The notes: a model not told the origin generated them from the sequence alone. Shown: positions 7,421 through 63,397, counted from the first letter of the stretch. The stretch: DNA of 64,000 nucleotides from Oceanispirochaeta sp. (GCA_963677615.2 CAXXQW010000006.1:33520-97519), one strand, 5' to 3'. Numbers and translations are program-made.

Positions 7421-7471
7421 GGCGATACTCTCTCCCTATTCTCTCATTTTGAACTATACACATCATATATC

Positions 7472-8434
7472 TCACTTTCTGTCTCTTATACGCGGATCAA
7501 CAACACCATAAAGTAGATCTACTATTAAATTGCAAATTATTATGAATACTGAAATAACAAAAACAACATTCTGAACAACCATAAAATCTTTACTTCTAAT
7601 CGCTGTTATCATTGTAGAGCCAAGACCGGGTATAACAAAAAGTGACTCAATAATAATGGTCGTTCCCACCATAATTCCCAGCTGAAATCCCATAACAGTA
7701 ATAATGGGAATCAGTGCATTCCTCAGCTGGTGTTTAAGAATTATATTTTTTCTGTCTAGCCCCTTTGCTCTGGCGGTTCTAACATAATCCTGACGAATAA
7801 CTTCCAGCATTGCAGACCTGGTCTGTCGGGTAAAAACAGCCGTAGGGGTTAAGGAACAGATAATCACCGGCATAATAAGCGGTTTTATCGACTTACCAAA
7901 ATCAACCCATGGAGGGACATATCCCTGTACAGGCAGCATGCGTAACTTAATGGAAAAGATAAGAATCAAAAGAATACCAAGCCAGAATATCGGCATGGCC
8001 ATTCCAAAATTAGCCAGGGTTGATACTACAGAATCAAGAGGCTTCCCCCTATGCAGAGCGGCTATGATTCCAAAAGTGGAACCTATAATTACGGCAAGAA
8101 AAAAAGCCGGTAAAACCACTGAAAGAGTAATCGCCAGTTTTTCAAATATAAACTGGGATATATCTTTCTGCATTAATACAGAGCGGCCCATCTGACCATG
8201 AAATAGGTTGCTTATCCATTTACCATATTGAACAAGTATAGGCTGATCATACCCAAATAGTTTCGTATAGTGGTCAATTTGTTCCATCGTTGCAGAAGGC
8301 CCCAGAAAGATACGAATGGGATCTCCTGGAACAGCCTGCATTACCATGAACACAATAAAAGTTACGACGACTAATACTATGAGTGAATGAGCAACCCTTG
8401 ATAAAATCATTTGTAATAATTTGTTCTTCATCAT
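7472..8434 (-). CDS. oppB: peptide ABC transporter permease (OppB/DppB-like)
   Basis: PGDP, QDYVRTARAKGL, RNALIP, DLLYGVVDPRI. Start trimmed to MMKNKLL. Confidence 0.92.
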   Translation of the reverse strand: MMKNKLLQMILSRVAHSLIVLVVVTFIVFMVMQAVPGDPIRIFLGPSATMEQIDHYTKLFGYDQPILVQYGKWISNLFHGQMGRSVLMQKDISQFIFEKLAITLSVVLPAFFLAVIIGSTFGIIAALHRGKPLDSVVSTLANFGMAMPIFWLGILLILIFSIKLRMLPVQGYVPPWVDFGKSIKPLIMPVIICSLTPTAVFTRQTRSAMLEVIRQDYVRTARAKGLDRKNIILKHQLRNALIPIITVMGFQLGIMVGTTIIIESLFVIPGLGSTMITAIRSKDFMVVQNVVFVISVFIIICNLIVDLLYGVVDPRIRDRK

Positions 8435-8570
8435 ATATCTCCAATTTCTCATCGGCAATGAACTAGTAAACCGTCACTAGCCGGATCTGATAAAAACAAA
8501 CTCCGGTTTCATTCACATTTACGATCACTTGAATTTCCATTCTCCGAGTAGTAAGTAAAAAATGAATACT

Positions 8571-8596
8571 GGGGACCAGATTTTTATCTGATCCCC
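8571..8596 (-). terminator. stem-loop between oppA and oppB (mRNA-stabilising hairpin or partial terminator)
   Basis: Inverted repeat ggggaccagat / atctgatcccc with 1 mismatch, just after the oppA stop. Confidence 0.5.
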
Positions 8597-8613
8597 GATT
8601 TCTCTATATATTG

Positions 8614-10176
8614 TTATTCGATCCAGGCGTTTGCAGGATCCCAGGTATAAACATGGTCCCAGTTGATTCTTGTATCATGGAGCGTTTTCACTTTGAATAC
8701 AAAAGGCTTTTGAATATAAAGAGGCTGACCAAACAACGCATATTTATCATAGGCCATAACCTGCATCTTCCACTCAAGTGCTACTTTTTCTTCATCCGTA
8801 GGGGCAACTCGTATCTGATGCAGAAGGTCCAGCATTTCCTGAGGATGCTGAAAACCTCCAGCATAGAAGGGAGCATCCGGATCTAGGTGTCTACCCATGA
8901 ACAAACCGAGGTCGGGAGAGATGGAGTGATAGTGACCCATTATTCCTTCCCAGGTACTGGAAAACATATTAAAGATTGTGGGGTCGTCCACCAGGTTTAC
9001 AGTAGTCCGGATACCTGCTTCAGTCAGCATGTTTGCAGCTGCGGTAAACATATCCTTAGTTTGGGGAGGTGTATTGATAACTGTATCAAAACCATTGGGA
9101 TATCCAGCTTCAGCAAGTAATTTTTTAGCTTTTTCAGGATTATAAGGATACCCTTTAACATTGGGATTATATGTTTTTGCACCTTTGGCTGCCCACTGAT
9201 TTGTAGAATCAAGAAGACCGTATCCGAAAGTTCTTACCAGAGCTTCTGCATCTATTGCATAACACATGGCCTGTCGAACCTTAACATCTGCAAAAGGTGA
9301 GTCTGGATCGGCACTATTAGGAATAAGCCCTGTTCCTACAAGACCGCGACCGGATTTATTCTCTTCCATGTCGTAGATGCCTGCATTCATCAGCTGCTGA
9401 CCAGCAATTATATCCTCTATCAGAATGGCATCATATTCCCCATTTTGAAACGCCAGGGCGATGGTCTGGTTTTCCTGAATAATGTCAAAATTGATCGCAT
9501 CCAGATAGGGCTTGCCTTCCTGCCAGTAATTTTCGTTCTTAACATAACGTACTTTTACGTTGTTTACAAATTCAGAGACAATGAAAGGACCTGTTCCCGC
9601 AGAAGACGACCGTAGTTTATCTACATCTTCAAGAGCTTTGGGTGAAGCGTAGAATACATAGAATCCCATACCTTCAAGAGTCGATGAATTCCAGTCTTTA
9701 AGTATCAGTTTTACCGTATAATCATCAATGATATTGATACTGGCAATATTTTGGGTCTCGTTTCTTCCTACACTCTGGTACTCCTCAATGTTCCTTTTAA
9801 CTGCTGCGGCGTTGAAGGGTTCACCATCGGAGAATTCTACTCCCTGACGAAGTGTCCATGTGATACTAGGTTCTGACGGGTCAGTAGTCCAGGCAGTCGC
9901 CAGACTCGGAATAACATTCCCCTTTTCATCATATTTGATAAGTGATTCATATGCTGAATAAACATAGAGCAAAGGTCCATTTGAGGTAACTTCCGGCATA
10001 TAACCGGAATTAGGCAGCTGATTGAACAAACCAAAACGTAATACGCCTCCGTATTTACCGTCTTTCTTGACAGTTGTTTGTTCTGTTTCCTGGCCGCCAT
10101 TAGCTAATACTGGACTGATAAATACAGCCATGATCGCCAAGGCAATGATAGTTCTAAATAGTTTTCTTGAACTCAT
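8614..10176 (-). CDS. oppA: family 5 ABC substrate-binding protein (OppA/DppA-like)
   Basis: Signal peptide ending LA-NGGQE, YESLIKYD...PSLAT.W...LRQGVEFSDG.PFNA.AVK, AGTGPF, KVRQAM.YAID, YNPEKAKKLLAEAGYP. Confidence 0.9.
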   Translation of the reverse strand: MSSRKLFRTIIALAIMAVFISPVLANGGQETEQTTVKKDGKYGGVLRFGLFNQLPNSGYMPEVTSNGPLLYVYSAYESLIKYDEKGNVIPSLATAWTTDPSEPSITWTLRQGVEFSDGEPFNAAAVKRNIEEYQSVGRNETQNIASINIIDDYTVKLILKDWNSSTLEGMGFYVFYASPKALEDVDKLRSSSAGTGPFIVSEFVNNVKVRYVKNENYWQEGKPYLDAINFDIIQENQTIALAFQNGEYDAILIEDIIAGQQLMNAGIYDMEENKSGRGLVGTGLIPNSADPDSPFADVKVRQAMCYAIDAEALVRTFGYGLLDSTNQWAAKGAKTYNPNVKGYPYNPEKAKKLLAEAGYPNGFDTVINTPPQTKDMFTAAANMLTEAGIRTTVNLVDDPTIFNMFSSTWEGIMGHYHSISPDLGLFMGRHLDPDAPFYAGGFQHPQEMLDLLHQIRVAPTDEEKVALEWKMQVMAYDKYALFGQPLYIQKPFVFKVKTLHDTRINWDHVYTWDPANAWIE

Positions 10177-10245
10177 AATTTTCTCCTTCTTGTTTATGTT
10201 CTACAAATGCCTGAACGGGCCCTGAACCGGCATTATGTAAATCGC

Positions 10246-12054
10246 TTAAATTAATGCGGGAAGCAAGATACAACTAGGATAATCCCCTCCGTACATAAGG
10301 GTATTAAAGGTTATGCAATCTTCTTCCTGTAAAGACCATATTTCATCATGATTCCTGTGAATATTGTACATGGGAAAATTCGAGGAGCTGATATCAACTC
10401 GGATTGTACTTCCAGCAGAGACTTTCCAGGCAACCGGCCACATCTCTATTTTTAATTGAGTGACATCATGAGGGGTGTACTCTCTTGCCATTCCATTTCC
10501 AGCTCTAAATCTGATAGTTGAAATGCCATCGCATATGTTAAAATACTGTCCTTGAATCTCTTCCATTATCTTTACGGCAATACATGTATCGGGTGCATCA
10601 GAACTGACATTAAGTAGCACCTTGATATTCCCGACAAGATCAATATCCTCTTCAAAAGGCTTCGATATAAATGTTACAACGTCATCTCTGAACTCCGGCT
10701 CCGGCTGCAGCACACATCCATGTTTCGCTCCTTTGAAATCAGGATTTATCCATGCTAAAAGAGCGCTTCCTCCAATAGTATGAACCGGGTTGGAAGAGTC
10801 ATACACAAATTCCCTGGTATATGTATTCTCAGGAGCTACCTCTCTTAAAATGCCAATTCTATTATTTACCAGATTCTCTGAATCTAAATAAAGACACTTT
10901 TGTTCAGCATCAACCGGCCACTTATCATGGGCTATCCATTTTCCGCTGTTTACCAGATAGGTTTCCACATTTCCGACTTCATGAGGATAGTTTTCACCCT
11001 TCAACTGAAAATCAAACCATTCAATAGCTTCCCTGACACAGAATGTACTCAAAGCAATTTTCCCTGCAAAACCCTTATCTCCAGGAGTTTTGAATGAATG
11101 ATCCCAGGGACCGATAAGAAAGCGGCTTTTATTCCTGATGGATTGGGGAAGATTGTTATATGCCTCACACATTCCATCAAGATGATGGTCAAACCAGCCG
11201 GCAATCATGTGAACTGGAATACTTATTTTCGAAGGGACTTTCTGGAGATCATACCAAAGACCGGAACTCCACAAATCCGAATCGACTGATGGATTGGTTA
11301 CCCAGTCCCGGTACCAGGATATTTCAGTATTGAACAGATTATAATCCATCTCTATATGGGGTTTAACTTTTAATGCTTCCTGGTAAAGATCTCCCGGATT
11401 CTTTTCTGTTGTAATCCCTGAATTTTCAACAGCCCACATGGTATAGATTTCATGACGGAACATACCACCCATATACATTTGGCGATACCGCTCTGTTCCC
11501 GCAACAGTAAAAAACAGGGTTTTTACTTCCACTGGTACAGCATCAGCCATCAACCACTGATTGATTGAAAGATAGGATGGACCGAACATTGCAATTCTAT
11601 TCTGGCTCCAGGGCTGTGCCTTTATCCATTCGATAGCAAGAAGTCCATCGTTACGCTCATTGACAAAGGGAATCCACTCTCCTTTTGAAGATCCAGTACC
11701 CCGACAATCCTGTACAACGACAACATACCCGTACATAGCCATTAATGAAGCAGCACAGAACAATTGTATTCCCGTTGACAAAGCAGAATAGGGAGATCGA
11801 ATAAGAATAACCGGGTATTCCTTTTCGAAGTTGGGCGAAATAACCTCGGTAAAAAGGGTTACATCTTCATCCACGTCTACCATAAAGGATCGTGAAACAA
11901 CACTTCGGTTTGTAACTTCCTGGTTTTCAAATATCATGTCATTTATTACAGAGCGGTTAGTTTCATCAATATTATCAGGAATGAGTTCGGTATAATTGAT
12001 TATTCTCTCCGCATCGTATTCACAATCCATACTGATTTTCACCTTTCTTTTCAA
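10246..12054 (-). CDS. CocE/NonD family serine hydrolase, copy 2
   Basis: RSPY, CRGTGSSKG, GPSY, GWFDHH, GPWDH, RVDISSSNFP. No signal peptide. Confidence 0.9.
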   Translation of the reverse strand: MKRKVKISMDCEYDAERIINYTELIPDNIDETNRSVINDMIFENQEVTNRSVVSRSFMVDVDEDVTLFTEVISPNFEKEYPVILIRSPYSALSTGIQLFCAASLMAMYGYVVVVQDCRGTGSSKGEWIPFVNERNDGLLAIEWIKAQPWSQNRIAMFGPSYLSINQWLMADAVPVEVKTLFFTVAGTERYRQMYMGGMFRHEIYTMWAVENSGITTEKNPGDLYQEALKVKPHIEMDYNLFNTEISWYRDWVTNPSVDSDLWSSGLWYDLQKVPSKISIPVHMIAGWFDHHLDGMCEAYNNLPQSIRNKSRFLIGPWDHSFKTPGDKGFAGKIALSTFCVREAIEWFDFQLKGENYPHEVGNVETYLVNSGKWIAHDKWPVDAEQKCLYLDSENLVNNRIGILREVAPENTYTREFVYDSSNPVHTIGGSALLAWINPDFKGAKHGCVLQPEPEFRDDVVTFISKPFEEDIDLVGNIKVLLNVSSDAPDTCIAVKIMEEIQGQYFNICDGISTIRFRAGNGMAREYTPHDVTQLKIEMWPVAWKVSAGSTIRVDISSSNFPMYNIHRNHDEIWSLQEEDCITFNTLMYGGDYPSCILLPALI

Positions 12055-50630: not shown

Positions 50631-51809
50631 TCAAACCTCTTTCATGGGTTTCATCCCCTGTTCTACAGGCAGGGATGCAATAGGAGATGAGACAAGGAAA
50701 TCTCCTCTTTTGATTTCATCCTGCAAAATCGCGGCAATTTTCCTGGCCCCGGCATAGGAGGAGAGGCTTCCTGCTTCGATCTTTTGCCCATTCAGCTCTA
50801 TCTGCCCGGATTTCAGCTCTTCGTAACTGACGCTACCCAGAACCTTCCCGGTCCGCTGGGGATAGTCGGTGGAATAATCTATCACCTGGGCCTTGATATC
50901 CCTGTCGCGGATGGTCGTCTGAAGGAGCATCTGTTCATCCAGAATGGGAATGGGAATCCCCACCCCGAGAGAGAGGGAGACGCCGTACCCTTTCAGGCTG
51001 ACCCCCCGGACAAATTCCGGAAGCATCTTTTTCATATCACCTGTAAGGGCCAGGGTTCCTGCTCCTTCAGAAGGCACTCCCAGAACACCCCTTTCACAGC
51101 TGGGAGAATGCTGGGTTCCCTCTGCATAGACATGCCCCTGAGCGCCCGCCAGCCAGACCCTCGTCCCTACTCCGATGGTTCTGTAGAACGGATCATTCAG
51201 CAGGGGAGAAAGCTGCCCGGCGCTGGAATACCCGCAATTCTTCATCCGGGGCTTCAGATACCCCAAATAGGTATGGATGGGATTGTCCGAAGTATTCACA
51301 GCCACATTGTAATTCTGATAACAGTTACGGGGATTCACCATAATCGCCTGATTCAGATCATCTATGGTTATTCGGGTACGAAGCTCCCGGTTGGGATAGT
51401 CATCGGTCCCGTAGGAGAGGGCAAACAGCTGAACCTCTTCTCCGGCCACGAGTTTTTCGATCACATGGCCTCCCCCGAACTTGAAATCCCCGGGATATTC
51501 AATATTCGCAGGATCATTGGCTCTGAGCTGGGTGGCTCCCAGATAGAGATCTACCGCAGCAATTCCCGAATAGGCCAGAACATCATCCAGCCAGGCTTCG
51601 GTTATCCGGATTTTCGGTTTGCTATGCCCGAAATTGAGGAAACATCCGGAAGAGCACATGGGGCCGAAGGTGGCGGTGGTAACAACGTCCACTTCTCTGG
51701 CTGCCTGCTCCAGCCCTTTTTTATCAACATAATCGATCACTTCCTCGGCGGTAAGAACCACCGCCTTGCCGGAACTGATCCTGTCGTTTATCTGTTCTAC
51801 AGTTTTCAT
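50631..51809 (-). CDS. DUF39 homocysteine biosynthesis protein (aspartate-semialdehyde sulfurtransferase type), no CBS domains
   Basis: INDRI..G.AVVLTAEE, DVVTTATFGPMCSSG, AAVD.Y.GATQ, PRN.YQNY, SSAGQLSPL.NDP, G.GVSL..GVGIPIP. Confidence 0.92.
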   Translation of the reverse strand: MKTVEQINDRISSGKAVVLTAEEVIDYVDKKGLEQAAREVDVVTTATFGPMCSSGCFLNFGHSKPKIRITEAWLDDVLAYSGIAAVDLYLGATQLRANDPANIEYPGDFKFGGGHVIEKLVAGEEVQLFALSYGTDDYPNRELRTRITIDDLNQAIMVNPRNCYQNYNVAVNTSDNPIHTYLGYLKPRMKNCGYSSAGQLSPLLNDPFYRTIGVGTRVWLAGAQGHVYAEGTQHSPSCERGVLGVPSEGAGTLALTGDMKKMLPEFVRGVSLKGYGVSLSLGVGIPIPILDEQMLLQTTIRDRDIKAQVIDYSTDYPQRTGKVLGSVSYEELKSGQIELNGQKIEAGSLSSYAGARKIAAILQDEIKRGDFLVSSPIASLPVEQGMKPMKEV

Positions 51810-53177: not shown

Positions 53178-53936
53178 TTACAGCTCTTCCACTCTGACCA
53201 GACCGGCCTGAAGCTGTTCGATCACCCGCATGGCACTGCTTAAGGGCTGGATTACCGCATCAGCCAGCATCTCACCCAAAAGGGTATGTTTTCCGCAGAA
53301 ATGGACCTCCGGACCGTTTCCGGAAAAAACCAGGATCGAATCGGTCCCCGTACCGCTGGCGATCCGTCCGGTAACAGGGCTCTTTACCTGAAAATCACAA
53401 AGGGTCCAGGCCCTGGCTTCCGCCGCCAGCATCAGGGCTTCCGCCAGAGCGGCTTCGCTGAGACAGGCATTTGTCCCCAGGGCGATATTGATGGTGCCTG
53501 AACCTGCCTGATGAGCTTCCAGCTCCACACAATCCGCCGGATCTCCTGCAGCCCGGGCATTGGTGGTTCCCACTGTCATAAAGCAGAAAGCGTAAAGTTC
53601 CCCTTCCTCTCTGAGGTGCCACCGGAAACTTTTCATGGAGGCGGATGTCATCATTCCCGCCATGGGTGTTTTCAGCCCCAGGGATGCGGCTTTTGCTTCC
53701 AGCTGATGTCCGGGAGGATCGAATCCCCCGTAATGTTCGGAAGTGTTGTGACCGACCTGCATATTCAGCAGTGAGGAAATCGTCTGCCTCCCTCCGTTAT
53801 ACAGGGCGGAAGAAAGAACCTCTACAGGAGAGTCCCATTGGAGGGTCACACAATCCTCCATGGGTGAAACTGTCAAGCCCAGAGATCCCATCTGCAGGCG
53901 AATCGGTTTGAATTCCATTTTTTTCACAGGAAACAT
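53178..53936 (-). CDS. cbiZ: adenosylcobinamide amidohydrolase
   Basis: LSSA..NGG, GMMTSA, TVGTTNA, GTINI, EAR..A, SGTGTD, GKHT.LGE. Located in a riboswitch-led btu operon. Confidence 0.85.
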   Translation of the reverse strand: MFPVKKMEFKPIRLQMGSLGLTVSPMEDCVTLQWDSPVEVLSSALYNGGRQTISSLLNMQVGHNTSEHYGGFDPPGHQLEAKAASLGLKTPMAGMMTSASMKSFRWHLREEGELYAFCFMTVGTTNARAAGDPADCVELEAHQAGSGTINIALGTNACLSEAALAEALMLAAEARAWTLCDFQVKSPVTGRIASGTGTDSILVFSGNGPEVHFCGKHTLLGEMLADAVIQPLSSAMRVIEQLQAGLVRVEEL

Positions 53937-53939
53937 CCT

Positions 53940-54737
53940 TTATATTTCACCTAAAGGCCCCGGCCCCAGAATGGGAGAGCCTTTACCCCGAGCGGGATAA
54001 TAGTAGTCCATATCGGTATCATAAACCTGACGGATCCTTTCGGGAGTGACAACCTCTTTGACAGGACCATGAACAACACAGCGTCCTTCTTTCATCAGAA
54101 TAACCCTGTCAGCATGTAAAAGCGCCTGATTCACGTCGTGGAGTATGGCGATTACGGTTTTTCCATGGTCAGCCTGTTTCCGCAGGAGCTTCAAAAGGGT
54201 GTCCTGATGGCGCAGATCCAGATGATTGGCCGGCTCATCCAGAAGAAGAACCCCCGGATTCTGAAGGAGGACCCGGGCCAGGAGGACCCGCTGATATTCT
54301 CCCCCGCTGAGACTGTCTACAGGCCGGTAACGGAAGGAGATCAGATCACACTGATCCAGCACATCTTCCAGAGCCTCCTCCTGAGCTTTCCCAAAGTGGC
54401 AGAAGGCGCTTCCAAACCGGTAGGCTCCCATTTTCACCACATCTTCCACGGTAAAATCATAGGGGGATTCATTCAGCTGAGGTACGAGCCCTACCAAAGA
54501 CGCTCTTTGAACATCATGAACACGGGAAATATCTCTGTTATTAATATAGATAGCCCCCTCTTCGGGTTTCAGACGACCCCGGATCAAGGCGAAAAGAGTG
54601 GATTTTCCCGAACCGTTCGGCCCCAGGATCGCTGTAACCTCACGGGGATTCATCTCCAGATTCTCCAGGGAAAGGTGAAATCCTTTGGCGTAGGAAAATT
54701 TCAGGGCCGGGATTCTGACCCCTTCGGCAATAGGCAT
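53940..54737 (-). CDS. btuD: cobalamin ABC transporter ATP-binding protein
   Basis: GPNGSGKST, LSGGEYQR, LDEPANHLD, LHDVNQA. Confidence 0.9.
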   Translation of the reverse strand: MPIAEGVRIPALKFSYAKGFHLSLENLEMNPREVTAILGPNGSGKSTLFALIRGRLKPEEGAIYINNRDISRVHDVQRASLVGLVPQLNESPYDFTVEDVVKMGAYRFGSAFCHFGKAQEEALEDVLDQCDLISFRYRPVDSLSGGEYQRVLLARVLLQNPGVLLLDEPANHLDLRHQDTLLKLLRKQADHGKTVIAILHDVNQALLHADRVILMKEGRCVVHGPVKEVVTPERIRQVYDTDMDYYYPARGKGSPILGPGPLGEI

Positions 54738-55768
54738 CAGACAGCCTTCCTGGATTTGATATACTGCCTGAGAAGATAAAGGAAAAAAGGACCTCCCAGC
54801 ATTGCGGTAATAACTCCCACCGGGATTTCAAGCGGAGCCATGACGCTCCGGGCCACCAGATCTGAAAGGATCATAAGAATGGCTCCTGAGGGGAGAGAGA
54901 GAACCATAACCCTGCGGTTCTCCGACCCGGCCAGGATCCTGACAATATGAGGAACCAGGAGGCCCGTAAAACCGATGATCCCGGAAAAGGAGACAATCGC
55001 CGAAGTGATGATACAGGCTGTTCCCAGAAGAATCAGGCTCTGCCTTTCCGGATTTATCCCCAGGGAGTGGGCCTCTTCGCTTCCCATGGCCAGAAGGTTC
55101 AGTTCCCGGCTTTTCAGAATAAGGAACCCCGTTGCGGGGGTCAGAACGCACAGGAGGATCAGGATTCTCACCCAGTCGGCGCTTCCGAAGCTCCCCATCA
55201 TCCAGAAGATAATCCGCTCAGCCCGGTCCCTGTGAAGCATCATCAGAAAGGATACACCCGCCTGAGCAATATTGCTGAAAGCGATACCCGCCAGAAGAAG
55301 GCTTCCGATATTGCCTCTGGTTCTGCCTGCCACGGCCATAATCAGAAACATGGCAGCGATCCCTCCCAGAAAAGCCGAGACTGTCACTCCCAGGACGGGC
55401 AGAATGAGAACAGGAAGATTCAGGAGAAAAAACAGAGCCGCACCCAGAGAAGCCCCCGAGGAGATTCCCAAAAGATAGGGTTCCGCCATGGGGTTACGGA
55501 ATACACCCTGAAAAATCACACCCGAAATAGCCAGCCCCGCTCCTGCCAGTCCTGCATAAAGAACCCTGGGAAGGCGGATTTTCATCAGGATGGTCTGGTG
55601 AGACTCTATCAGGCCGGCCTCCCCCCTGCTGGTGAAAAACTTCAGGATTCCCAGAGGATCTATGGCTACAGCGCCTATGGAGGAGGCAATAGGGATCAGG
55701 CAGACCAGGATAAAAAGGAGAAGGGGCATCATCCAGGGGTTTTTCACAGAGGCTTTATCAGTTTTCAA
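54737..55768 (-). CDS. btuC: cobalamin ABC transporter permease (FecCD family)
   Basis: IRLPR, FRNP.AEPYLLG.SSGA, GSEEA.SLG, IGF.GL.VPH. Confidence 0.92.
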   Translation of the reverse strand: MKTDKASVKNPWMMPLLLFILVCLIPIASSIGAVAIDPLGILKFFTSRGEAGLIESHQTILMKIRLPRVLYAGLAGAGLAISGVIFQGVFRNPMAEPYLLGISSGASLGAALFFLLNLPVLILPVLGVTVSAFLGGIAAMFLIMAVAGRTRGNIGSLLLAGIAFSNIAQAGVSFLMMLHRDRAERIIFWMMGSFGSADWVRILILLCVLTPATGFLILKSRELNLLAMGSEEAHSLGINPERQSLILLGTACIITSAIVSFSGIIGFTGLLVPHIVRILAGSENRRVMVLSLPSGAILMILSDLVARSVMAPLEIPVGVITAMLGGPFFLYLLRQYIKSRKAV

Positions 55769-56663
55769 TGTTTTCCCTGAAGATCCGGGCTAACAGTTCC
55801 AGCCCGTCAATCAGACGCGGCCCCTGACGTACCAGAATATTTTCATCAATCTCATAGACCTTTCCCGCCCGGGAGGCCGAGAGGTCTTTGTATATGGGCA
55901 GGGTCAGAAAATTCTCCTTTTTTCCCATTCCCATAAGGATGAGCTCGGGATCCTGATCAACCAGCATCTCTTTGGAGTAGGACCATCCTTCCTGAGTCAC
56001 GATGTTCTCTCCTCCGGCCATGGTAATAAGGCTGTCCATAAAAGTTCCGGCGCCGGCGGTCCAGTCTCCTCCGTCACCAAACCCCAGAGCGTAATAGACC
56101 CGGGGATGTCTCGGCCAGGCAGCCGCCTCTTTTTCCACCCGGGCGATTCTCTCATCCAGATCCTCAAGGATACGGCGTGCTTCCGCTTCGGCTCCCAGCA
56201 GAGTTCCGCATCCGCTGATAACATCGGCCAGTCCGGAAAAGTCCTCTTCGCCGTACAGAAGAGCTACAGGAATTCCGACCTGTTCCAGGGTTTGCACAGT
56301 TTCTTCGGAAACATGGGTGGAGGCGATCACCAGATCCGGTTCCATACTGATGATGATTTCCAGATTGGGTTCCTGCAGGGTTCCGATAGACGGAACATCC
56401 TGAGCTTCCGCAGGATAATCGCACCAGTCGGTCCGTCCCGCGAGAAGATTCCCTCGTCCCAGGGCAAAAACGGTTTCTGTGATATTCGGCCCCAGAGAGA
56501 TTACTTTTTCAGGGTATCGGCCGAGGCGGATTTCCCGGCCTTTGGAATCGGAAAGGGAAATCTCCGTATTTCCTGCAGTTTCTCCGGCTCCCGAAGGGAA
56601 CATCTGAGAGAAAGGGAGAATCAATATAAGGAGAAGAAGGCTTCTTCGCAGACGTTCCAACAT
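55758..56663 (-). CDS. btuF: cobalamin ABC transporter substrate-binding protein
   Basis: PEKVISLGPNITE..FALG, GRTDWCDYP, PNLE.I....PDLV, RQGPRL. Directly downstream of a cobalamin riboswitch. Confidence 0.9.
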   Translation of the reverse strand: MLERLRRSLLLLILILPFSQMFPSGAGETAGNTEISLSDSKGREIRLGRYPEKVISLGPNITETVFALGRGNLLAGRTDWCDYPAEAQDVPSIGTLQEPNLEIIISMEPDLVIASTHVSEETVQTLEQVGIPVALLYGEEDFSGLADVISGCGTLLGAEAEARRILEDLDERIARVEKEAAAWPRHPRVYYALGFGDGGDWTAGAGTFMDSLITMAGGENIVTQEGWSYSKEMLVDQDPELILMGMGKKENFLTLPIYKDLSASRAGKVYEIDENILVRQGPRLIDGLELLARIFRENIEN

Positions 56664-56664
56664 T

Positions 56665-56847
56665 GTATATACCTCGTATACGTTATTTGGTTTTCATAAC
56701 GGAAGGTCTTCTGGCTTTCAGATCATCAGCTGATTTCACCCTTCCCGGGGGTTCCCAGTGGGCGGTGGTAAAACCTGAAAAATCAACTTCCCTGATTACA
56801 GCGGCGGGACCGCGGAGGAATCTCACCTCTCTTCCCTGTTCCGTATG
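56665..56847 (-). ncRNA. cobalamin riboswitch (controls btuFCD-cbiZ)
   Basis: Minus strand: AGGGAA-gaga-GGTGagATTCC...GGTCCCGCCGCTGTAA...GCCCACTGG...GGGAAG...AAGCCAGAAGACC. P1 CATACGG/CCGTTATG. The 3' hairpin GTATA-CGAGGTA-TATAC carries the SD of btuF. Confidence 0.93.
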
Positions 56848-56964
56848 AATTGTAAGTAGAAAACTGGGGCATAAAAGACGAATTGTCAACATGAATAGCA
56901 AATGATTACAAAAACATCGCTATTTTTTTATGGAAGGATCCGTTCAAACCGGTTTACCATGTCA

Positions 56965-57133
56965 GCGTTATTTCAGAGGAAGTCAGGTGAAAAGCCTGCA
57001 CGGACCCGCCACTGTAAGGGTGTAAGGCGATCTGCAAGACCATTGGGAAAAACCGGGAAGGGCAGATACGTATACCCCGAGTCAGGAAACTCTGGTAACG
57101 CAACAACAAGTATCAGGCTTCGAGGACTAAGCC
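56965..57133 (+). ncRNA. cobalamin riboswitch (controls lipoprotein-btuB-btuG operon)
   Basis: AGAGGAAGTCAGGTGAAAAGCCTG...GGACCCGCCACTGTAA...GACCATTGG...GGGAAGG...GAGTCAGGAAAC. P1 GCGTTA..TCAGAG/CTCTGGTAACGC. 3' hairpin GGCTT-CGAGGACT-AAGCC. Confidence 0.93.
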
Positions 57134-57233
57134 GGGATATGTCTATAAAAAACCATTTTTAAAAATAGTTTTTAAAATTCGGACTTTTTATAATACCTAT
57201 CCTGTCTTTTCCGGCCTTACCGAGGAAGGAAAA

Positions 57234-57731
57234 ATGAAAACATTGAAAAACTGGATTGTACTGCTGACTGCTCTTTTTGTATTGGGCGGAATGATGTCAT
57301 GTGAACTGTTTGAAGAAGAGGAAGAAACCATTGAAATCATTGGAACGTGGGACGCTGGAATTATTATTGATGGTGATCTGATATCCTTCAATAATTTTGA
57401 TTATTATCCGGATGAAGCAAAATATACTGCTGATATTATTTCATTTAGCAATCAATCATTTAATGCAGGAGAAACCGGAGAAGGTAATTGTGGTTACGTG
57501 GTTGTTTGTTATAACAATTCTCCCGATTATTCAGCCTGGGGTTTTGGTGTAAATGAGATTGAGGGAAAATACATGGTTATCAGATGGCAAAATCTAGAAG
57601 AAGTAGATGGTGTAATCTCAATGAGATATGCAGAAGGATATGGAACTTACTTTGATACCGCTGATGATGCGATAGAGAATGCAACAGATTCAAACGGATA
57701 TTTCTCATTTAGCTCTACAACACAAGAGTAG
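57234..57731 (+). CDS. uncharacterised lipoprotein (possible beta-barrel/lipocalin-like)
   Basis: Signal with lipobox MMS-C23, acidic tether ELFEEEEE, IIGTW motif. SD GAGGAAGG. Confidence 0.75.
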   Translation: MKTLKNWIVLLTALFVLGGMMSCELFEEEEETIEIIGTWDAGIIIDGDLISFNNFDYYPDEAKYTADIISFSNQSFNAGETGEGNCGYVVVCYNNSPDYSAWGFGVNEIEGKYMVIRWQNLEEVDGVISMRYAEGYGTYFDTADDAIENATDSNGYFSFSSTTQE

Positions 57732-57733
57732 GA

Positions 57734-58681
57734 ATGATAAAGCAATTGATATCAACAACCCTAATCATAGGGTTGTTAATTTCACTATTAAACTGTGGTG
57801 GAGAAGATTCTCCCTTATCTCCCTATACTCCTGATACGGACGAGACTTCCGATATGACATGGGAGGAACTCCTTGCCAGCGATTCCAGTTACCCGGACAA
57901 TGTGTATCTAACCGAGTTTGTCGAGTGGAATCCCGGGCTGGTTGGTTCTGCCCGTATGGGAACTGAATACACAGACGATTCGGGTTATCCATTGGAAAGT
58001 TTAACAGTAGATGCGCTTGGTCCCCCCGAGGGAGGAGGACCCCACACCGGCGGAGACGGATTAACCTGTCCTGTTGGAATCAACGGCTGGGCTGTATGGA
58101 AGTTCAACCCCGACTATGTCATTGTGGATGGTACGGGGGATGATTTTATGACCTTTACCAAAACCTGGGCCTGGGGCAGCGCCGAAGACGGACTCTGCTG
58201 CGAACTGGCCTTTGTGCAGGTATCGGAAGACGGCACCACCTGGTACGAAGTGGATCCTGATCCAACTATATTAAAATATGACACAAACCCTTCTCCTACG
58301 GTTGATAATGACAGCTATGTCTATGCCAACGTGGCCAACCTGCACGGCAACAACCCCACCAACGCAAACTTCCGGAAGGATATGCCCGCCGAAGCGATCC
58401 AGACCATTGACGGCGAAAGGATCTGGGCCGAGGTGGAGGGAGAAACGGTAAGCCGGTATTTCGAACCGGATGATCCCTACCTGGGGGGTATTTCATTTGA
58501 TTTAGCCAACTTCGTTCTGGTCAGCGATAACTCTCAGAGCTGGCCGTCAGATGGAAAAATGCGGTACCTCAAGATCATCGACAGCGATACGATTCTGGAC
58601 GGACAGGATTACAGCAAAGACTGGTGCCTGGGTGCCAATCTGATGTCCGCCATGGGTATCAATACCGAGGCAGCTCCTTAA
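57734..58681 (+). CDS. acidic surface lipoprotein, 'cell surface protein'/BtuH-like candidate corrinoid-binding protein
   Basis: Lipobox LLN-C. Motif series ALGPP.GGG, G.NG..V..F, I.DG.G.DF, E.A.V.VS.DG..W, GG.SFDLA, RY.KI.D, recalled from cell-surface proteins in B12 loci. Confidence 0.6.
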   Translation: MIKQLISTTLIIGLLISLLNCGGEDSPLSPYTPDTDETSDMTWEELLASDSSYPDNVYLTEFVEWNPGLVGSARMGTEYTDDSGYPLESLTVDALGPPEGGGPHTGGDGLTCPVGINGWAVWKFNPDYVIVDGTGDDFMTFTKTWAWGSAEDGLCCELAFVQVSEDGTTWYEVDPDPTILKYDTNPSPTVDNDSYVYANVANLHGNNPTNANFRKDMPAEAIQTIDGERIWAEVEGETVSRYFEPDDPYLGGISFDLANFVLVSDNSQSWPSDGKMRYLKIIDSDTILDGQDYSKDWCLGANLMSAMGINTEAAP

Positions 58682-58682
58682 T

Positions 58683-60638
58683 ATGAAATTTTCCCGAAGG
58701 TTTCCCATATTTGTCGTTCTATTCACATCTCTGGCTCTCCCCCTGACAGCTCAGGAAGGAACAACAGACGACCCCATCCTGATTGAGGATGAACGCCTGC
58801 AAACAGAAACCGAAGCGGGACAGAAAAGTGTGATTGAAAAGGAAACCTGGGAACAGAAAGGAGCCCGAACGGTTTCCGAGGCTATTCAGTTTACCCCGGG
58901 TTTGACGATGAGCAAAACCGGCACCACCCTGGAAAACACAACTGTCAGCATCAGAGGTACAAGCGGACAGCAGGTTCTGGTTATGGTCAACGGCATACCC
59001 CTGAACAACGGGAAGGGAGATGCGGTCAACCTGAACACCCTCAGCCTGAATAACGTGGTGAAAATAGAGGTAATTCGGGGCGGCAACAGCGCGGTTTACG
59101 GCGAGGGAGCTTTCGGCGGTGTAATCAATATCATTACAGAAGAAGAACCCCCTCTCTACTTCCAGGGAGATATCTACGGAAAAGCCGGGTCTTTTTCCAC
59201 CTATACAGGAGGGGGGGATTTCCGCTTTCCTGTAAATTTCTCCGGAACCCTGACCGGCAATATATCCGGTGAATACCGGATGACCCGGGGAGATTACAGC
59301 TACGAATCCAGCCAGGGTGATGTTGACCGGTCCAACAGCGAAGGATGGGCCGACAATGCGGCTGCCGGACTGGACTGGAATATCGGCGGGATGGACCGCC
59401 ACAGGATATCCCTGAAAACCTCCTGGTACCAGGGCGGCCGGGGAATCCCCGGTCTGATGGAGTACTTAACACCCGAAGCCCGGCTGGACGACTCCCGGCT
59501 GAACCTTTCCACCCGTTATGTTTTTACCGGCTACAGTCAGGAAGTTCTGGACAGCGAGTTTACCTGGATCCGTCAGGATTCCCTCTATGAAAATTCCGAA
59601 TCCGGAACCCTGCAGGACCATGAAAATTCCTCTCTCCGGGGACGGGTGGATTTTACCCTGCCTATGGGAAGAGGCGTTTTGACCTGGACCCCTTTTCTGG
59701 GCACAGCCGTTTCCAGCGATTCTTTAACATCCACCAGTTTGAGAAGCAGCGACGGCACAAACCTCCCGGGAGAAGCAAAGCAGACCGCTCTCTCAGCTTA
59801 TGGTCGCATTACACTGACAGGACAGGATTTCACTCTGACTCCGGCCTATCGCTGGGATGGCAGCGACACATCCTATGCGGGATGGGATTCCCGGTCAGAC
59901 AGCCACTCATCCTATTCACTGTCCGGAACCTATACCCTTCCGTTCTACAGGAGATTGACTGTAAAGAGTAATATAGGAACAGCATATCACAGCCCGGGGT
60001 TTGATGACCTGTTCTGGAGCGGTGGAGCTTTTGCAGAGGGAAATCCGGATCTCCTCCCGGAGGAGAACTTCAACTGGGATACCGGGATCTATCTCACTCC
60101 TGCCAGAGGTCTGGAGCTAACAACGGTGTACTTCCAGAGCCGGACAAAAAATCTGATCCAATGGATGCCAACTGCCGGAGGAACCTGGAGGCCTGTCAAT
60201 ATCGGAGAAGTGGACAGTTTTGGACTGGAAAACAGTCTCTCCTGGCTCCAGCCGCTTATGGATGAGAATTTATTTATGGAACTGAGCGGAACCTACTCCT
60301 GGATGAAACTGACCGATACCTCGGAAGACTCCATCAATCAGGGGAATCAGCTCCCCTATCGGCCTGTGCATTCCGGATCAGGGTCAGTCTCACTTTTGTA
60401 TAAGCGACACAGCCTGACTTTTTCCTCCCGGTATATGGGGCAGAGATTTACCAACATGGCCAATACAAAAGATCTGGCACCGGCCCTCATTATGGATACG
60501 GTATTACTGCTTCAGTTTGAATCGGGATTTTATACATCTCTGGCTGTGCTGAACCTGGCTGATCTTCAATATATTGACAAATTAGGTTATCCCGTTCCCG
60601 GCCGGGAATGGACTGTGACCGGAGGATACAGATTTTGA
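58683..60638 (+). CDS. btuB: TonB-dependent outer-membrane receptor (BtuB-like)
   Basis: Signal peptide; plug motifs IRG...QVLVMVNG.P and IEVIRG.NSAVYG.GA.GGVINIIT; GNPDLLPE; C-terminal PGR...GGYRF. Riboswitch context. Confidence 0.9.
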   Translation: MKFSRRFPIFVVLFTSLALPLTAQEGTTDDPILIEDERLQTETEAGQKSVIEKETWEQKGARTVSEAIQFTPGLTMSKTGTTLENTTVSIRGTSGQQVLVMVNGIPLNNGKGDAVNLNTLSLNNVVKIEVIRGGNSAVYGEGAFGGVINIITEEEPPLYFQGDIYGKAGSFSTYTGGGDFRFPVNFSGTLTGNISGEYRMTRGDYSYESSQGDVDRSNSEGWADNAAAGLDWNIGGMDRHRISLKTSWYQGGRGIPGLMEYLTPEARLDDSRLNLSTRYVFTGYSQEVLDSEFTWIRQDSLYENSESGTLQDHENSSLRGRVDFTLPMGRGVLTWTPFLGTAVSSDSLTSTSLRSSDGTNLPGEAKQTALSAYGRITLTGQDFTLTPAYRWDGSDTSYAGWDSRSDSHSSYSLSGTYTLPFYRRLTVKSNIGTAYHSPGFDDLFWSGGAFAEGNPDLLPEENFNWDTGIYLTPARGLELTTVYFQSRTKNLIQWMPTAGGTWRPVNIGEVDSFGLENSLSWLQPLMDENLFMELSGTYSWMKLTDTSEDSINQGNQLPYRPVHSGSGSVSLLYKRHSLTFSSRYMGQRFTNMANTKDLAPALIMDTVLLLQFESGFYTSLAVLNLADLQYIDKLGYPVPGREWTVTGGYRF

Positions 60639-61807
60639 AAAAGCTCTTTTTCTTTTTTGTGACGTCCCTGATCCTGCTTTCCTGTGAAGAAGAGATACAA
60701 TCGGACTATCAGAAATATATGGATAAAAACTACAGTGAAGTCCTCTTTATTCTGAATGGAGAGGCCGAGTCGTTCAGTGCCTATGCCCCATCGGACGGCG
60801 CCATGTACCGGGATATTCAGCTTGTAGGGTTTTCCGGGTCCAGCGAAGCCTGGCCCAAAGATATTCTCTACACAAATGACAGTATCTATGTGGTGAACTC
60901 CGGGCAAAACACAATAGAGCGTTTCAATGCGGCGACTCTGGATTATGAGGATGATCTGTACCTGGATAATGGATTCAACCCTATGACACTCTGCCTGGTG
61001 GGAGGCGGAACCAGAGCAGCCATTTCCGGTTATGGAGCAGACCAGGTAAAACTGGTTGACCTGGATCTGATGACAATACTGGATTCTGCCAATGTTTACG
61101 GGTCAACAGCAGAAACCAATGCAACCGATGACAGTTATGATAGAAACCCTACCGGTTTAGCCGCTGCTGGCACAACTCTGTATGCTTCCAATATCCGATA
61201 CAGCGGAACAGGGTTCAGAGAAGCCACCATAAGTATTTTCAGTATAGATGGGGCATACGGAACCCTGAACCTTGTCAAAGAGATCAATCTGGAAGAGATG
61301 TACGATACCTTCAGCGGAGAAAGCTATACCTCCGATTACGGTCTGAACCCCCAATCCCTTTTTGTGCTGAATGAAAAACTCCATGTGATCTGTACCGGAA
61401 CCAACGGAGGCAGTGAAGGAGATGACGGAAAAATCCTGATCCTGGATATTACCGACTCCACCTCCCCCACAATGCATAAAGTGCTGGAGATTGGTGGATC
61501 CCCTGAGGGATTCCGTTCCTCCATGGACACTTTAAATGGCGTGATGTATCTGGCCGGTGTTGGCGGTGTACAGTCCTACGATTATGTAAACGAAACAATC
61601 CTTCATGACTCAAGGGATCTAATCCTTGCCGGAAGTGATTCCACCCTGGATTATTACTCTCATGTGCTTTACAACAATGGCATCCTCTATGTTTCTGACT
61701 GGACCCATGACAAACTGAACCTCATAGACGTTTCGTCTAACGATGAACCGATCGATTCCATCACCTGCGGAGACGGCCCCGGAGCCCTGCTCTATTTGAC
61801 CTATTAA
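60635..61807 (+). CDS. YncE/BtuG-like seven-bladed beta-propeller lipoprotein
   Basis: TTG start at 60635 (SD GGAGG, TTGA overlap with btuB), lipobox LLS-C. Repeated blade starts WPKDI, NPMTL, NPTGL, NPQSL, SPEGF, YYSHV, GPGAL. Confidence 0.75.
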   Translation: MKKLFFFFVTSLILLSCEEEIQSDYQKYMDKNYSEVLFILNGEAESFSAYAPSDGAMYRDIQLVGFSGSSEAWPKDILYTNDSIYVVNSGQNTIERFNAATLDYEDDLYLDNGFNPMTLCLVGGGTRAAISGYGADQVKLVDLDLMTILDSANVYGSTAETNATDDSYDRNPTGLAAAGTTLYASNIRYSGTGFREATISIFSIDGAYGTLNLVKEINLEEMYDTFSGESYTSDYGLNPQSLFVLNEKLHVICTGTNGGSEGDDGKILILDITDSTSPTMHKVLEIGGSPEGFRSSMDTLNGVMYLAGVGGVQSYDYVNETILHDSRDLILAGSDSTLDYYSHVLYNNGILYVSDWTHDKLNLIDVSSNDEPIDSITCGDGPGALLYLTY

Positions 61808-61824
61808 CACCTATAAAAGCGGCC

Positions 61825-61919
61825 CTTCGACTCCGCTCAGGGACCGCTTAAATTTTCCATAAGTCTCATATCGGATTCTCTGGTTTTTTGTAAATTCTGG
61901 TAGCTGAGCGGAGCCGAAG
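61825..61919. repeat. REP-like inverted repeat pair between convergent genes
   Basis: CTTCGACTCCGCTCAG (61825-61840) and inverted CTGAGCGGAGCCGAAG (61904-61919), 15/16 identical, each within its own small hairpin. Confidence 0.7.
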
Positions 61920-62633
61920 CTAGCTTATCAAACGGAATGAGAAGGTTTTCCAGACGCGGATGTCTTCGTCCCTTTTGGGGAAGCGCCAGGCTTTTTCCAC
62001 GGTTTTAACCACTGTATCATCAAGAACATCGTATCCTGAGCTGTCTTCCACACAGATGCTCTCTACGCGGCCTTTATGATTAATGACAAACGAAACGGTC
62101 ACATCTCCCTCCCATTCCATGCGTTTTGCCTGGGAAGGATAGGCAGGAACAGGCATTCTGGCCCCGTTCAAATCTATTTTTTCCAGTTTAATCCCTGCAT
62201 AAACCGGTGGGGCCTGTGTTTCTGTAGGGACTTCCGCAGCCTCCCCCGTCCCTGCGGTTTCGGCAGCCGGGGGAACAGGGTCTTCAATAGCAGGAACCGC
62301 CGGTTCCAAGATGTCTGTTTCTACCGGTTGAGCAGAATCAGCCGGTACCATTTCCACAGGAGGGTCCGTTCCGGGAGCTTCGGAAACAGGAGGGGTTTCA
62401 ACCGGTTCGGGAGCAACTTTATCCGGTTCCGGCAGGGAGGGAAGAGGTAAGGATTCGGGAGTTGCCGGAACCGGAACCTCCGGTACAAAAAGGGACACCT
62501 TCATGGGGGAAAAATCCGGCATATCCAGTGTTTTGGAACCTGTAATATTTTTTTCCAGCACAAAGAGTAACACCCCATGGGCAGCTATTGAAACCAGCAG
62601 GGCTCTTTTAAAGATTTTCTCTGATGCGTACAA
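61920..62633 (-). CDS. tonB: TonB energy transducer
   Basis: N-terminal TM with S...H (SIAAHG), Pro/Glu-rich linker, TonB_C (YPSQAKRMEWEG.V.V.F.I...G.V...V..SSG...LD). Confidence 0.88.
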   Translation of the reverse strand: MYASEKIFKRALLVSIAAHGVLLFVLEKNITGSKTLDMPDFSPMKVSLFVPEVPVPATPESLPLPSLPEPDKVAPEPVETPPVSEAPGTDPPVEMVPADSAQPVETDILEPAVPAIEDPVPPAAETAGTGEAAEVPTETQAPPVYAGIKLEKIDLNGARMPVPAYPSQAKRMEWEGDVTVSFVINHKGRVESICVEDSSGYDVLDDTVVKTVEKAWRFPKRDEDIRVWKTFSFRLIS

Positions 62634-62752
62634 AGGCAGACTTTCCTTGATTATTGGGTTATATTATACAGGAATCCTCAGAATCTTCCAATAGAAAAAT
62701 GGGTGAAGAATCGGATTCGTCTTCATTATTTCTGTATTCCGGAGAGTTTTTT

Positions 62753-63397
62753 ATGAACCTTTCACAACGTCTGTTTATGCTGTTGTTTTTTCTTATACCT
62801 GCAGCACTCTTATCTGCCCATCCCCATATGATGCTGACCAGCCGATGCACCATTCACACCACGGAAAAAGGAGTTGCAGGCATAACCCTGGAATGGGAAT
62901 TTGATAAATTTTTCAGTGCCGATGTGAATATGAATTTCGATGAAGACAAAAACGGGATTTTCGATTCTTCCGAAACAGAAAATGTTTTTCAATACGCTTT
63001 CAGTAACCTGAAAAAATACAACTATTTTGTCTTTTTCAGACAGGGAGACAGGCGTTTCAGTCCTCACAGGGTTGAGGACTTCCGGGTATGGAATAAAAAC
63101 GGGGATACCATGGTTTACAGTTTTTTCGTATCCACAGAAGACTATCCAGATCAGGATATAAGCCTTGCGGTTTACGATTCCAGTTTTTTCTGCCATGTGA
63201 GCTACGACAAGGACAATCCCGTAACATTCGACAGCAAAACAGACTCCCGACCTTACCGTTACACCCTGAAAGAAAACAAAGATTATCCGGTCTATTATGA
63301 TCCCTTTGCCCCGGCAACAGATTTAACGGTATACACAGAGTGGCGGCCGGGACTGAAAACATTTTATCCCACGGAGATTCAGATTGAACTCCCATAA
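62753..63397 (+). CDS. DUF1007 family periplasmic metal-binding protein (ZevA-like)
   Basis: Signal peptide followed by AHPHM, W.FD.FFS, YF..F, AVYD.SFF. Start trimmed to MNLSQR (62753). Confidence 0.8.
   Translation: MNLSQRLFMLLFFLIPAALLSAHPHMMLTSRCTIHTTEKGVAGITLEWEFDKFFSADVNMNFDEDKNGIFDSSETENVFQYAFSNLKKYNYFVFFRQGDRRFSPHRVEDFRVWNKNGDTMVYSFFVSTEDYPDQDISLAVYDSSFFCHVSYDKDNPVTFDSKTDSRPYRYTLKENKDYPVYYDPFAPATDLTVYTEWRPGLKTFYPTEIQIELP

Follow-up and report, generated by a model that had tools for sequence, protein, structure and literature searches.

Lipoprotein-assisted "pedal-bin" uptake of vitamin B12 is usually discussed as an adaptation to gut competition. Whether a similar machinery is encoded by a spirochaete is the question raised by a 64,000-nucleotide (nt) stretch of Oceanispirochaeta sp. 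DNA (GCA_963677615.2 CAXXQW010000006.1:33520-97519), called the window below, in which all positions without a locus number are counted. Behind a cobalamin riboswitch it carries genes for two lipoproteins (A and B), a TonB-dependent transporter and a beta-propeller lipoprotein. BtuG has been described as exclusive to Bacteroidetes (PMC6143338), and BtuH is distributed mainly in Bacteroidota, with three Firmicutes in addition (PMC13616437). In our full-text literature searches, a BtuBG-type system was nowhere described for spirochaetes; only BtuJ/DUF4465, a B12-capture accessory of btuB loci, has been reported in Spirochaetota too (PMC13398666). We consider it likely that the locus represents the riboswitch-controlled outer-membrane half of corrinoid scavenging, consisting of BtuB, a BtuG-like propeller, the BtuH-like lipoprotein B and the accessory lipoprotein A. 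Judged by profile comparisons, Spirochaetota here have the known BtuBG(H) system in a strongly diverged variant. Gene content, riboswitches, lipoprotein signals, folds, remote homology and the linkage of a conserved cassette to riboswitches were all computed directly.

The original prediction had described a riboswitch-led operon of A, B, transporter and propeller with a convergent tonB, and all these elements were found in place (Table 1). The four genes are tightly packed into one operon, with spacings of 2 nt between A and B and 1 nt between B and the transporter gene, and with overlapping transporter and propeller genes. The riboswitch lies 142 nt 5' of the lipoprotein A gene on the same strand. 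Signal peptides ending in a lipobox cysteine are present in A (LGGMMSC), B (SLLNC) and the propeller (ILLSC), and this cysteine is invariant or nearly so in each of the three family alignments. The tethers following the lipidated cysteine are short and acidic. Lipoprotein B had been singled out as acidic; its isoelectric point (pI) is indeed ~4.05, but the same value applies to all three mature lipoproteins, so acidity is not special to B. Translational coupling of the propeller gene was also correctly proposed; translation probably begins at TTG 60635, giving a protein of 390 amino acids (aa), and not at ATG 60608. The TTG overlaps the transporter stop codon (TGA 60636-60638) as TTGA and is located 8 nt after GGAGGA; several propeller homologues are also called from TTG at the equivalent position.

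Scanning of GTDB genomes with the B alignment has found 25 loci (designated L with a number), and the cassette is present in 15 spirochaete loci other than the window. Eleven of these have the full window-type gene order. The order A-B-transporter-propeller is seen in L001, L004/L018, L005, L006, L008, L011, L020 and L025, as well as in the contig-truncated L013 and L021, while L007 begins inside B. A cobalamin (RF00174) or adenosylcobalamin (AdoCbl, RF01482) riboswitch immediately precedes the cassette in each of the 14 spirochaete loci for which upstream DNA is available. Such an arrangement far exceeds what chance would produce. In L004, btuF-btuC-btuD-cbiZ follow on from the cassette without a break, forming one operon with it. 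The closest relatives of the window are Oceanispirochaeta-type metagenome-assembled genomes (MAGs), which bears out its earlier assignment to a probable spirochaete; identity to L006 is 65% for B, 63% for the transporter and 48% for both the propeller and A. B is the best-conserved protein of the cassette (43-65% identity vs 35-48% for the propeller). Elsewhere, a Myxococcales MAG (L019) has a cobalamin riboswitch followed by a transporter, one open reading frame (ORF) and then a B-family gene, an unclassified MAG (L027, L029) has B-family genes behind cobalamin riboswitches, and in a Desulfobacteraceae MAG (L024) B-family genes adjoin riboswitch-led transporters. The link between B and cobalamin riboswitches extends over no fewer than three phylum-level groups.

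For comparison with the known system, the BtuB1 sequence was recovered from a PDB alignment and served as the query with which btu locus 1 of Bacteroides was retrieved from gut metagenomes. Genes for BtuK1, BtuK2, BtuH1, BtuB1, BtuG1 and BtuJ1 were identified in this locus (L030). The BtuH domain (H-domain) of BtuG1 (L030, 11957-13948) is C-terminal, at residues 398-654, in agreement with PMC10404256; a 2026 review describes it as N-terminal in BtuGH, contrary to the sequence (PMC13616437). H-domain, G-domain, BtuJ and BtuK alignments were built from Bacteroides, and the corresponding hidden Markov models (HMMs) were run on all ORFs of the scanned loci. This has revealed a second version of the cassette in L009, L010, L014 and L015, with proteins that we call B' and PROP'. 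B' is encoded at L009:2441-3898, L014:2905-4104, L015:6748-7866 and L010:6901-7968 (E 1e-21 to 1e-27 against the BtuH-domain HMM), and PROP' at L009:5958-7037, L014:6123-7205 and L010:11988-13184 (E 6e-14 to 9e-9 against the BtuG-domain HMM). Spirochaetales therefore have two versions of the cassette, the second being that of L014 (1923-8840), L009, L010 and L015. Several loci carry a window-type B gene beside a version-2 cassette, which suggests duplication and divergence or repeated transfer.

The propeller family comprises 33 clusters, and all of those with a source name are from spirochaetes. The AlphaFold2 model, built from a 30-sequence alignment, has a mean predicted local distance difference test score (pLDDT) of 89.7, a predicted template modelling score (pTM) of 0.87 and 28 strands, making up the seven blades that had been read from the DNA. 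Fold comparison with Foldseek, put forward as a check in the original prediction, placed BtuG structures on top: 12 of the 13 top PDB matches are BtuG, namely BtuG2 (8bai, 8bmy, 8bmz, 8bn0), BtuG3 (8p97_B, 8okv) and the BtuG-family protein 3dsm (E 4e-13 to 9e-12, template modelling (TM) score 0.6-0.76), and the remaining one is a YVTN propeller. BtuG1 likewise figures among the best structural matches. In hhalign comparisons, the window propeller family (alignment A1) matches the PROP' spirochaete propellers at 100% (E 1e-54, 317 columns), and PROP' matches Bacteroides BtuG (the BtuG1 G-domain) at 98.0% (E 2.4e-13, 174 columns). These values may be compared with those among the Bacteroides paralogues themselves: a search with BtuG1 retrieves BtuG2 and BtuG3 at no better than E 1e-9 to 1e-11, in matches of ~100 residues. 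Eight of the 30 propeller relatives match PF09826 weakly.

Lipoprotein B belongs to a family of 53 related clusters. Its AlphaFold2 model (pLDDT 91.9) is a beta-sandwich, and the sole PDB fold match with E <0.001 is 8blw_B (E 1.6e-6), that is, BtuG1 of B. thetaiotaomicron, composed of a propeller and a C-terminal BtuH domain of ~250 residues (PMC10404256). The window B family (alignment A2) matches the spirochaete BtuH-like B' at 90.9% in hhalign (E 1.2e-6, 93 columns, extending to 187 at mact 0.05), and B' matches the Bacteroides BtuH domain at 99.7% (E 6e-26, 228 columns). Cross-controls all remained below 1%: B against BtuG, BtuJ and BtuK, the propeller against BtuH and BtuJ, and A against all of them. 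Because of these chains through B' and PROP' and the low controls, we regard the window propeller as a remote BtuG homologue and lipoprotein B as a remote relative of the B12-binding BtuH domain, both placed by profile similarity. The BtuH-like call for B, originally made on motif similarity only, thus gains support from both fold and profile. The same evidence for BtuB, BtuG and BtuH relatives upholds the proposal of a Bacteroides-style multi-lipoprotein system centred on BtuB outside Bacteroidetes; it had been called analogous to that of Bacteroides, and the likeness is there, but the hhalign chains make the relation one of homology rather than mere analogy.

How far the ligand site of BtuH can be followed into B was judged from the published B12 and metal contacts of BtuH2: Q333, F334, N399, F401, E406, Y475, H476, Y510, D522, W577, S582 and E584. 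They were placed on 7BIZ with an offset of +100 and fall in the motifs PGQF, GNxFxGSSE, YH, GYW, GYVDN and GWxGExSTE. The N-terminal half is collinear across B, B' and BtuH, with SLGxxGG corresponding to GINGWAVW, and YDFxIxGN of BtuH to DDFxTF of B. Further on, E406-PGIVWVMxDxNGNG..DDxWY of BtuH is collinear with E157-LAxVxVSxDG..WY of B, so that the invariant E157 of B aligns on the BtuH2 metal-site residue E406. With the BtuH2 contacts only partly recognisable in B, binding of B12 by this protein is at most plausible from sequence.

Some members of the B family carry PEP-CTERM tails. In L003 (contig_83, 5960-10745) PEP-CTERM paralogues of B form two divergent groups, each behind a cyclic di-GMP (c-di-GMP) riboswitch of the c-di-GMP-I-GGC type (RF03167), and no TonB-dependent transporter was found near them. 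This branch of the B fold is probably not involved in B12 uptake. Weak matches to NCBIfam NF033170, the "LIC_13355 family lipoprotein" of Leptospira, were obtained for 16 of 46 B-family members (best E 4e-4) and hint at a related lipoprotein family in leptospires. B also matched an autolysin (E 0.002), but over no more than 57 residues rich in W and Y, and this similarity was dismissed.

A number of results weigh against so close a tie to BtuG, BtuH and B12. For the propeller, the generic YVTN propeller 1l0q nearly equals BtuG in Foldseek (E 2.5e-12 vs 3.7e-13), and as BtuG1 itself matches 1l0q, part of the fold signal is at the superfamily level. The propeller profile found no match among PDB sequences, direct hhalign comparison of the window propeller family with the BtuG1 alignment gave only 7.3%, and Pfam DUF5074 (PF16819, the BtuG/BtuK family) was matched by none of the 30 propeller relatives at E up to 1; on this model B. 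thetaiotaomicron BtuG1 itself reaches 47.8 bits as a partial match. The window propeller also lacks two loops (~57 residues in total) present in most relatives (A1 columns ~205-290 and 378-407; 399 aa vs 455-495 aa in relatives), and it is in this region that some of the blocks modelled with least confidence are located (pLDDT 68-79, residues 241-270). For B, the TM score to 8blw_B is just 0.39 (normalised to the query), the BtuH2 structure 7BIZ is absent from the Foldseek fold matches, and Pfam, NCBIfam and PDB sequence and profile searches with B and its family found no family. Direct hhalign comparison of the B family with the Bacteroides H-domain gave 12.9% (P 0.002), yet none of the other three comparisons scored higher. 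The window B subfamily does not conserve N399, and Y475/H476 (the YH motif) and the C-terminal ligands are not reliably alignable. The c-di-GMP-linked, transporter-free paralogues of L003 mean that the B fold is not exclusively linked to B12. Finally, a transcript search for the locus returned a single run only, holding it as contigs.

The transporter has a Plug domain (Pfam, E 6.7e-25). Its best PDB sequence matches are BtuB2, BtuB3 and BtuB1 of B. thetaiotaomicron (E 1e-19 to 5e-19), followed by CirA and E. coli BtuB. It aligns over its full length to the NCBIfam BtuB model PRK10641 with a score below the cut-off: the equivalog cut-offs of TIGR01779 and PRK10641 are 600 and 836 bits, and the transporter reaches 128 and 109 bits, respectively. 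Haem- and siderophore-receptor NCBIfam models score it about as well as the BtuB models. With scores so far below the equivalog cut-offs, its assignment as a corrinoid transporter draws on similarity to BtuB and on the genetic context, which comprises the riboswitch, btuFCD-cbiZ and the accessory genes.

Lipoprotein A had been presented as a protein of no recognisable family. Sequence and profile searches with A and its family indeed gave no Pfam, NCBIfam or PDB match, but the protein is not alone: exhaustive HMMER search delineated a family of 72 representative clusters. Orphan status, suggested by a word-indexed search that returned only the self-match, was overturned by this search and by positional homologues. 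Genes in the A position of L001 (Oceanispirochaeta) and L004 encode proteins with 39% and 27% identity, sharing the conserved Cys and the GTW, RW and FDT motifs, and the invariant residues of the family alignment (A4) are C23, G37, W39, N77, G87 and W118. Of the 15 spirochaete loci, 13 have A at the head of the cassette, and both versions are represented among them (L007 starts inside B and L009 has none). On this evidence A is a member of a small, mainly spirochaetal, unannotated lipoprotein family. The A domain also occurs in tandem, with two matched stretches in proteins of 258-399 aa and six in P0154 (the weakest with E 2.7e-4). Multi-copy or fused forms are P0088, P0092, P0119, P0123, P0124 and P0154, some of them fused to Big_2 immunoglobulin (Ig)-like domains, and the A-Ig-like fusion P0124 (L111) precedes a BtuH-like gene. 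Being found in tandem and fused to Big_2, the A domain behaves as a modular extracellular domain. Comparison of A with the BtuG, BtuH and BtuJ alignments, proposed as a way to place it, detected no relation in hhalign, and neither did comparison with BtuK. A lipocalin-like reading of the GxW...RW motifs is only a thought and was not used as evidence.

Table 1. Features of the corrinoid locus in the window. The gathering score of the Rfam covariance model RF00174 is 31.5 bits.
Feature	Position	Strand	Evidence
cbiZ, adenosylcobinamide amidohydrolase (corrinoid salvage/remodelling)	53178-53936	-	PF01955, E 6.3e-47
btuD-like ATP-binding cassette (ABC) ATPase	53940-54737	-	ABC_tran E 2.4e-31
btuC-like ABC permease	54737-55768	-	FecCD E 7e-87; NCBIfam BtuC E 1e-75
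btuF-like periplasmic binding protein	55758-56663	-	Peripla_BP_2 E 2.3e-30; NCBIfam BtuF E 2.5e-20
Second cobalamin riboswitch, divergent, heads btuF-btuC-btuD-cbiZ	56684-56885	-	RF00174, 81.7 bits, E 1.4e-18, full-length model
Cobalamin riboswitch aptamer, head of the A-B-btuB-propeller operon	56976-57092	+	RF00174, 61.8 bits, E 7e-13, model positions 45-169
Putative expression platform	57093-57233	+	Predicted hairpin: Shine-Dalgarno GAGGAAGG (~57221-57229) paired with upstream CCGGCCUU
Lipoprotein A, 165 aa	57234-57731	+	ORF; lipobox ...GGMMSC23
Lipoprotein B, 315 aa	57734-58681	+	ORF; lipobox SLLNC21
BtuB-type TonB-dependent transporter, 651 aa	58683-60638	+	ORF; Plug domain
Seven-bladed propeller lipoprotein, 390 aa (TTG 60635) or 399 aa (ATG 60608)	60635-61807	+	ORF; lipobox ILLSC
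tonB, convergent with the operon	61920-62633	-	TonB_C PF03544, E 5.9e-17

The two cobalamin riboswitches stand back to back in one 300-nt intergenic region, so the two halves of the uptake pathway appear to be regulated separately. The hairpin pairing the Shine-Dalgarno sequence GAGGAAGG with CCGGCCUU may be the expression platform of the plus-strand riboswitch; it comes from the minimum-free-energy fold of 57080-57250, for which a z-score of only -1.9 is weak evidence. Promoter and terminator scans at the locus gave nothing better than shuffled sequence. That the second operon includes cbiZ points beyond simple import, to salvage or remodelling of corrinoids. tonB has the identical position and orientation in the Oceanispirochaeta locus L001. 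Just past tonB the window has a DUF1007 gene (62654-63397, plus strand), in front of which no riboswitch was detected, and in L001 a DUF1007-NicO pair, a putative Ni/Co transporter, adjoins the cassette (4931-6479); these genes may provide a linked cobalt-uptake function. Within a few kb of the cassette, both the window (50631-51809, minus strand) and L004 (1-1108) have an HcyBio gene, for homocysteine biosynthesis. Its proximity may reflect a link to methionine metabolism or be a coincidence.

What the proteins would bind, whether they would reach the cell surface, how a lid complex would form and in which order corrinoids would be passed on can be pictured by analogy with B. thetaiotaomicron (PMC10404256, PMC6143338, PMC8941943, PMC13616437). 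Intracellular cobalamin would switch the operon off through the riboswitch. The BtuB-type transporter would be energised by the adjacent TonB, and the propeller would most likely form a lid on its extracellular face, capturing corrinoids with high affinity and releasing them to the barrel on lid closure. B would most likely be an additional surface corrinoid binder or relay, and A an accessory that may help in assembly, serve as an adaptor or be one more binder. Once corrinoids are in the periplasm, import would be taken over by BtuFCD, encoded under the divergent riboswitch, and CbiZ would allow remodelling of the imported corrinoids.

The same B12 operon could also work with its lipoproteins below the surface, anchored in that leaflet of the outer or inner membrane which faces the periplasm, where they would act after BtuB. 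Such a location would be compatible with the short acidic tethers, and lipoprotein sorting in spirochaetes follows rules of its own, unlike those known from Bacteroidota and unreadable from sequence. We nevertheless find it improbable, because the homologues BtuG and BtuH are surface-exposed in B. thetaiotaomicron (PMC6143338, PMC8941943) and some B-family members bear PEP-CTERM tails, a cell-surface sorting signal. Subsurface lipoproteins might take up corrinoid on the periplasmic side or lend the transporter stability, but a dedicated periplasmic binder, BtuF, is already encoded next door. Nor do we expect the propeller and B to be accessories for structure or envelope remodelling which bind no corrinoid and leave the vitamin to the transporter alone. 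There is a precedent in the B. thetaiotaomicron btu operons, where the BtuG-like propeller BtuK2 and BtuL are co-regulated by riboswitches, yet do not bind cobamides (PMC13616437), and both the partial conservation of the BtuH2 contacts in B and the c-di-GMP-regulated PEP-CTERM paralogues agree with it. What makes this quite improbable is that the propeller gene occupies the place of btuG, with its translation coupled to that of btuB, and that B exceeds the propeller in conservation and follows cobalamin riboswitches across phylum-level groups.

Least likely of all, and very improbable in our view, is import of a non-corrinoid such as a cobalt chelate or another tetrapyrrole, with the riboswitch merely coupling this import to B12 status. 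The transporter does score far below the NCBIfam BtuB cut-offs and similarly with haem and siderophore models, DUF1007 and DUF1007-NicO genes are found downstream in the window and adjacent in L001, and cobalamin riboswitches are known to control cobalt transporters. On the other side stand its best solved relatives, which are BtuBs, the accessory proteins related to BtuG and BtuH, and the paired btuFCD-cbiZ operon, with which the cassette is fused in L004. Riboswitch-controlled corrinoid scavenging by a diverged BtuBG(H) system therefore remains the reading we prefer. A bolder version of it, in which A is a new class of corrinoid-binding or hand-off protein and the cassette an ancient, independently elaborated extracellular cobamide relay of spirochaetes, seems unlikely to us; if true, several phyla of marine sediments and mats would share the strategy of lipoprotein-capped BtuB, which would then not be a speciality of gut Bacteroidota.

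New here are the diverged variant in another phylum, the extra family A and the BtuH-derived family B, unrecognised by domain libraries. The lipoprotein-assisted B12 scavenging module would accordingly not be confined to Bacteroidota, occurring also in free-living Spirochaetota in a form diverged beyond the reach of Pfam and BLAST. Such very distant sequences may help to tell which features of BtuG and BtuH are essential. The two unannotated families (A and window-type B) are candidates for new corrinoid-handling proteins, and annotation pipelines could gain a naming rule for dozens of "hypothetical proteins".

Among known systems, E. coli BtuB-BtuFCD shares with the locus a TonB-dependent BtuB, periplasmic BtuF, the BtuCD ABC importer and riboswitch control, but accessory lipoproteins are absent from E. 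coli, where the genes are dispersed instead of forming one divergent locus. The BtuJ/DUF4465 jellyroll binders resemble the lipoproteins as secreted or lipid-anchored B12-capture accessories in btuB loci; the BtuJ model (PF14717) had no match in A, B, the propeller or their families, hhalign against the BtuJ1 alignment gave at most 0.5%, and B. thetaiotaomicron BtuJ1 as a positive control was recognised by PF14717 with E 1.7e-48.

The B. thetaiotaomicron complexes BtuB1G1, BtuB2G2 and BtuB3G3 (PDB 8BLW, 8BMX, 8P97/8P98) are closer: they are under cobalamin riboswitch control, btuB is directly followed by the gene of a seven-bladed propeller lipoprotein (in the order seen in locus 1, L030), and btuFCD is nearby. 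BtuG is characterised by very tight binding of corrinoid at one face of the propeller and by stable capping of BtuB, whose EL8 loop displaces the B12. The window propeller, from the phylum Spirochaetota, is however only ~14% identical to Bacteroides BtuG and is missed by Pfam DUF5074 and direct profile search. B likewise resembles BtuH (BtuH1 BT1488, BtuH2 BT1956/7BIZ, the H-domain of BtuG1 BT1490) in being a lipoprotein with ~270 folded residues whose gene adjoins btuB under a B12 riboswitch. It differs from BtuH in a C-terminal half that is not confidently alignable, in the absence of PKD domains and in an ALGPPEG motif common only to spirochaete BtuH-like proteins. Between the window and the Bacteroides systems stand the version-2 cassettes (L014 1923-7205, L009 2176-7037, L010 6051-13184). 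Their BtuH-like protein and propeller are recognisably Bacteroides-like, unlike those of the window, and their propellers are shorter (~360 aa), but they belong to the same phylum and share with the window the succession of riboswitch, (A), BtuH-like protein, transporter and propeller, the same A family and an hhalign-related propeller.

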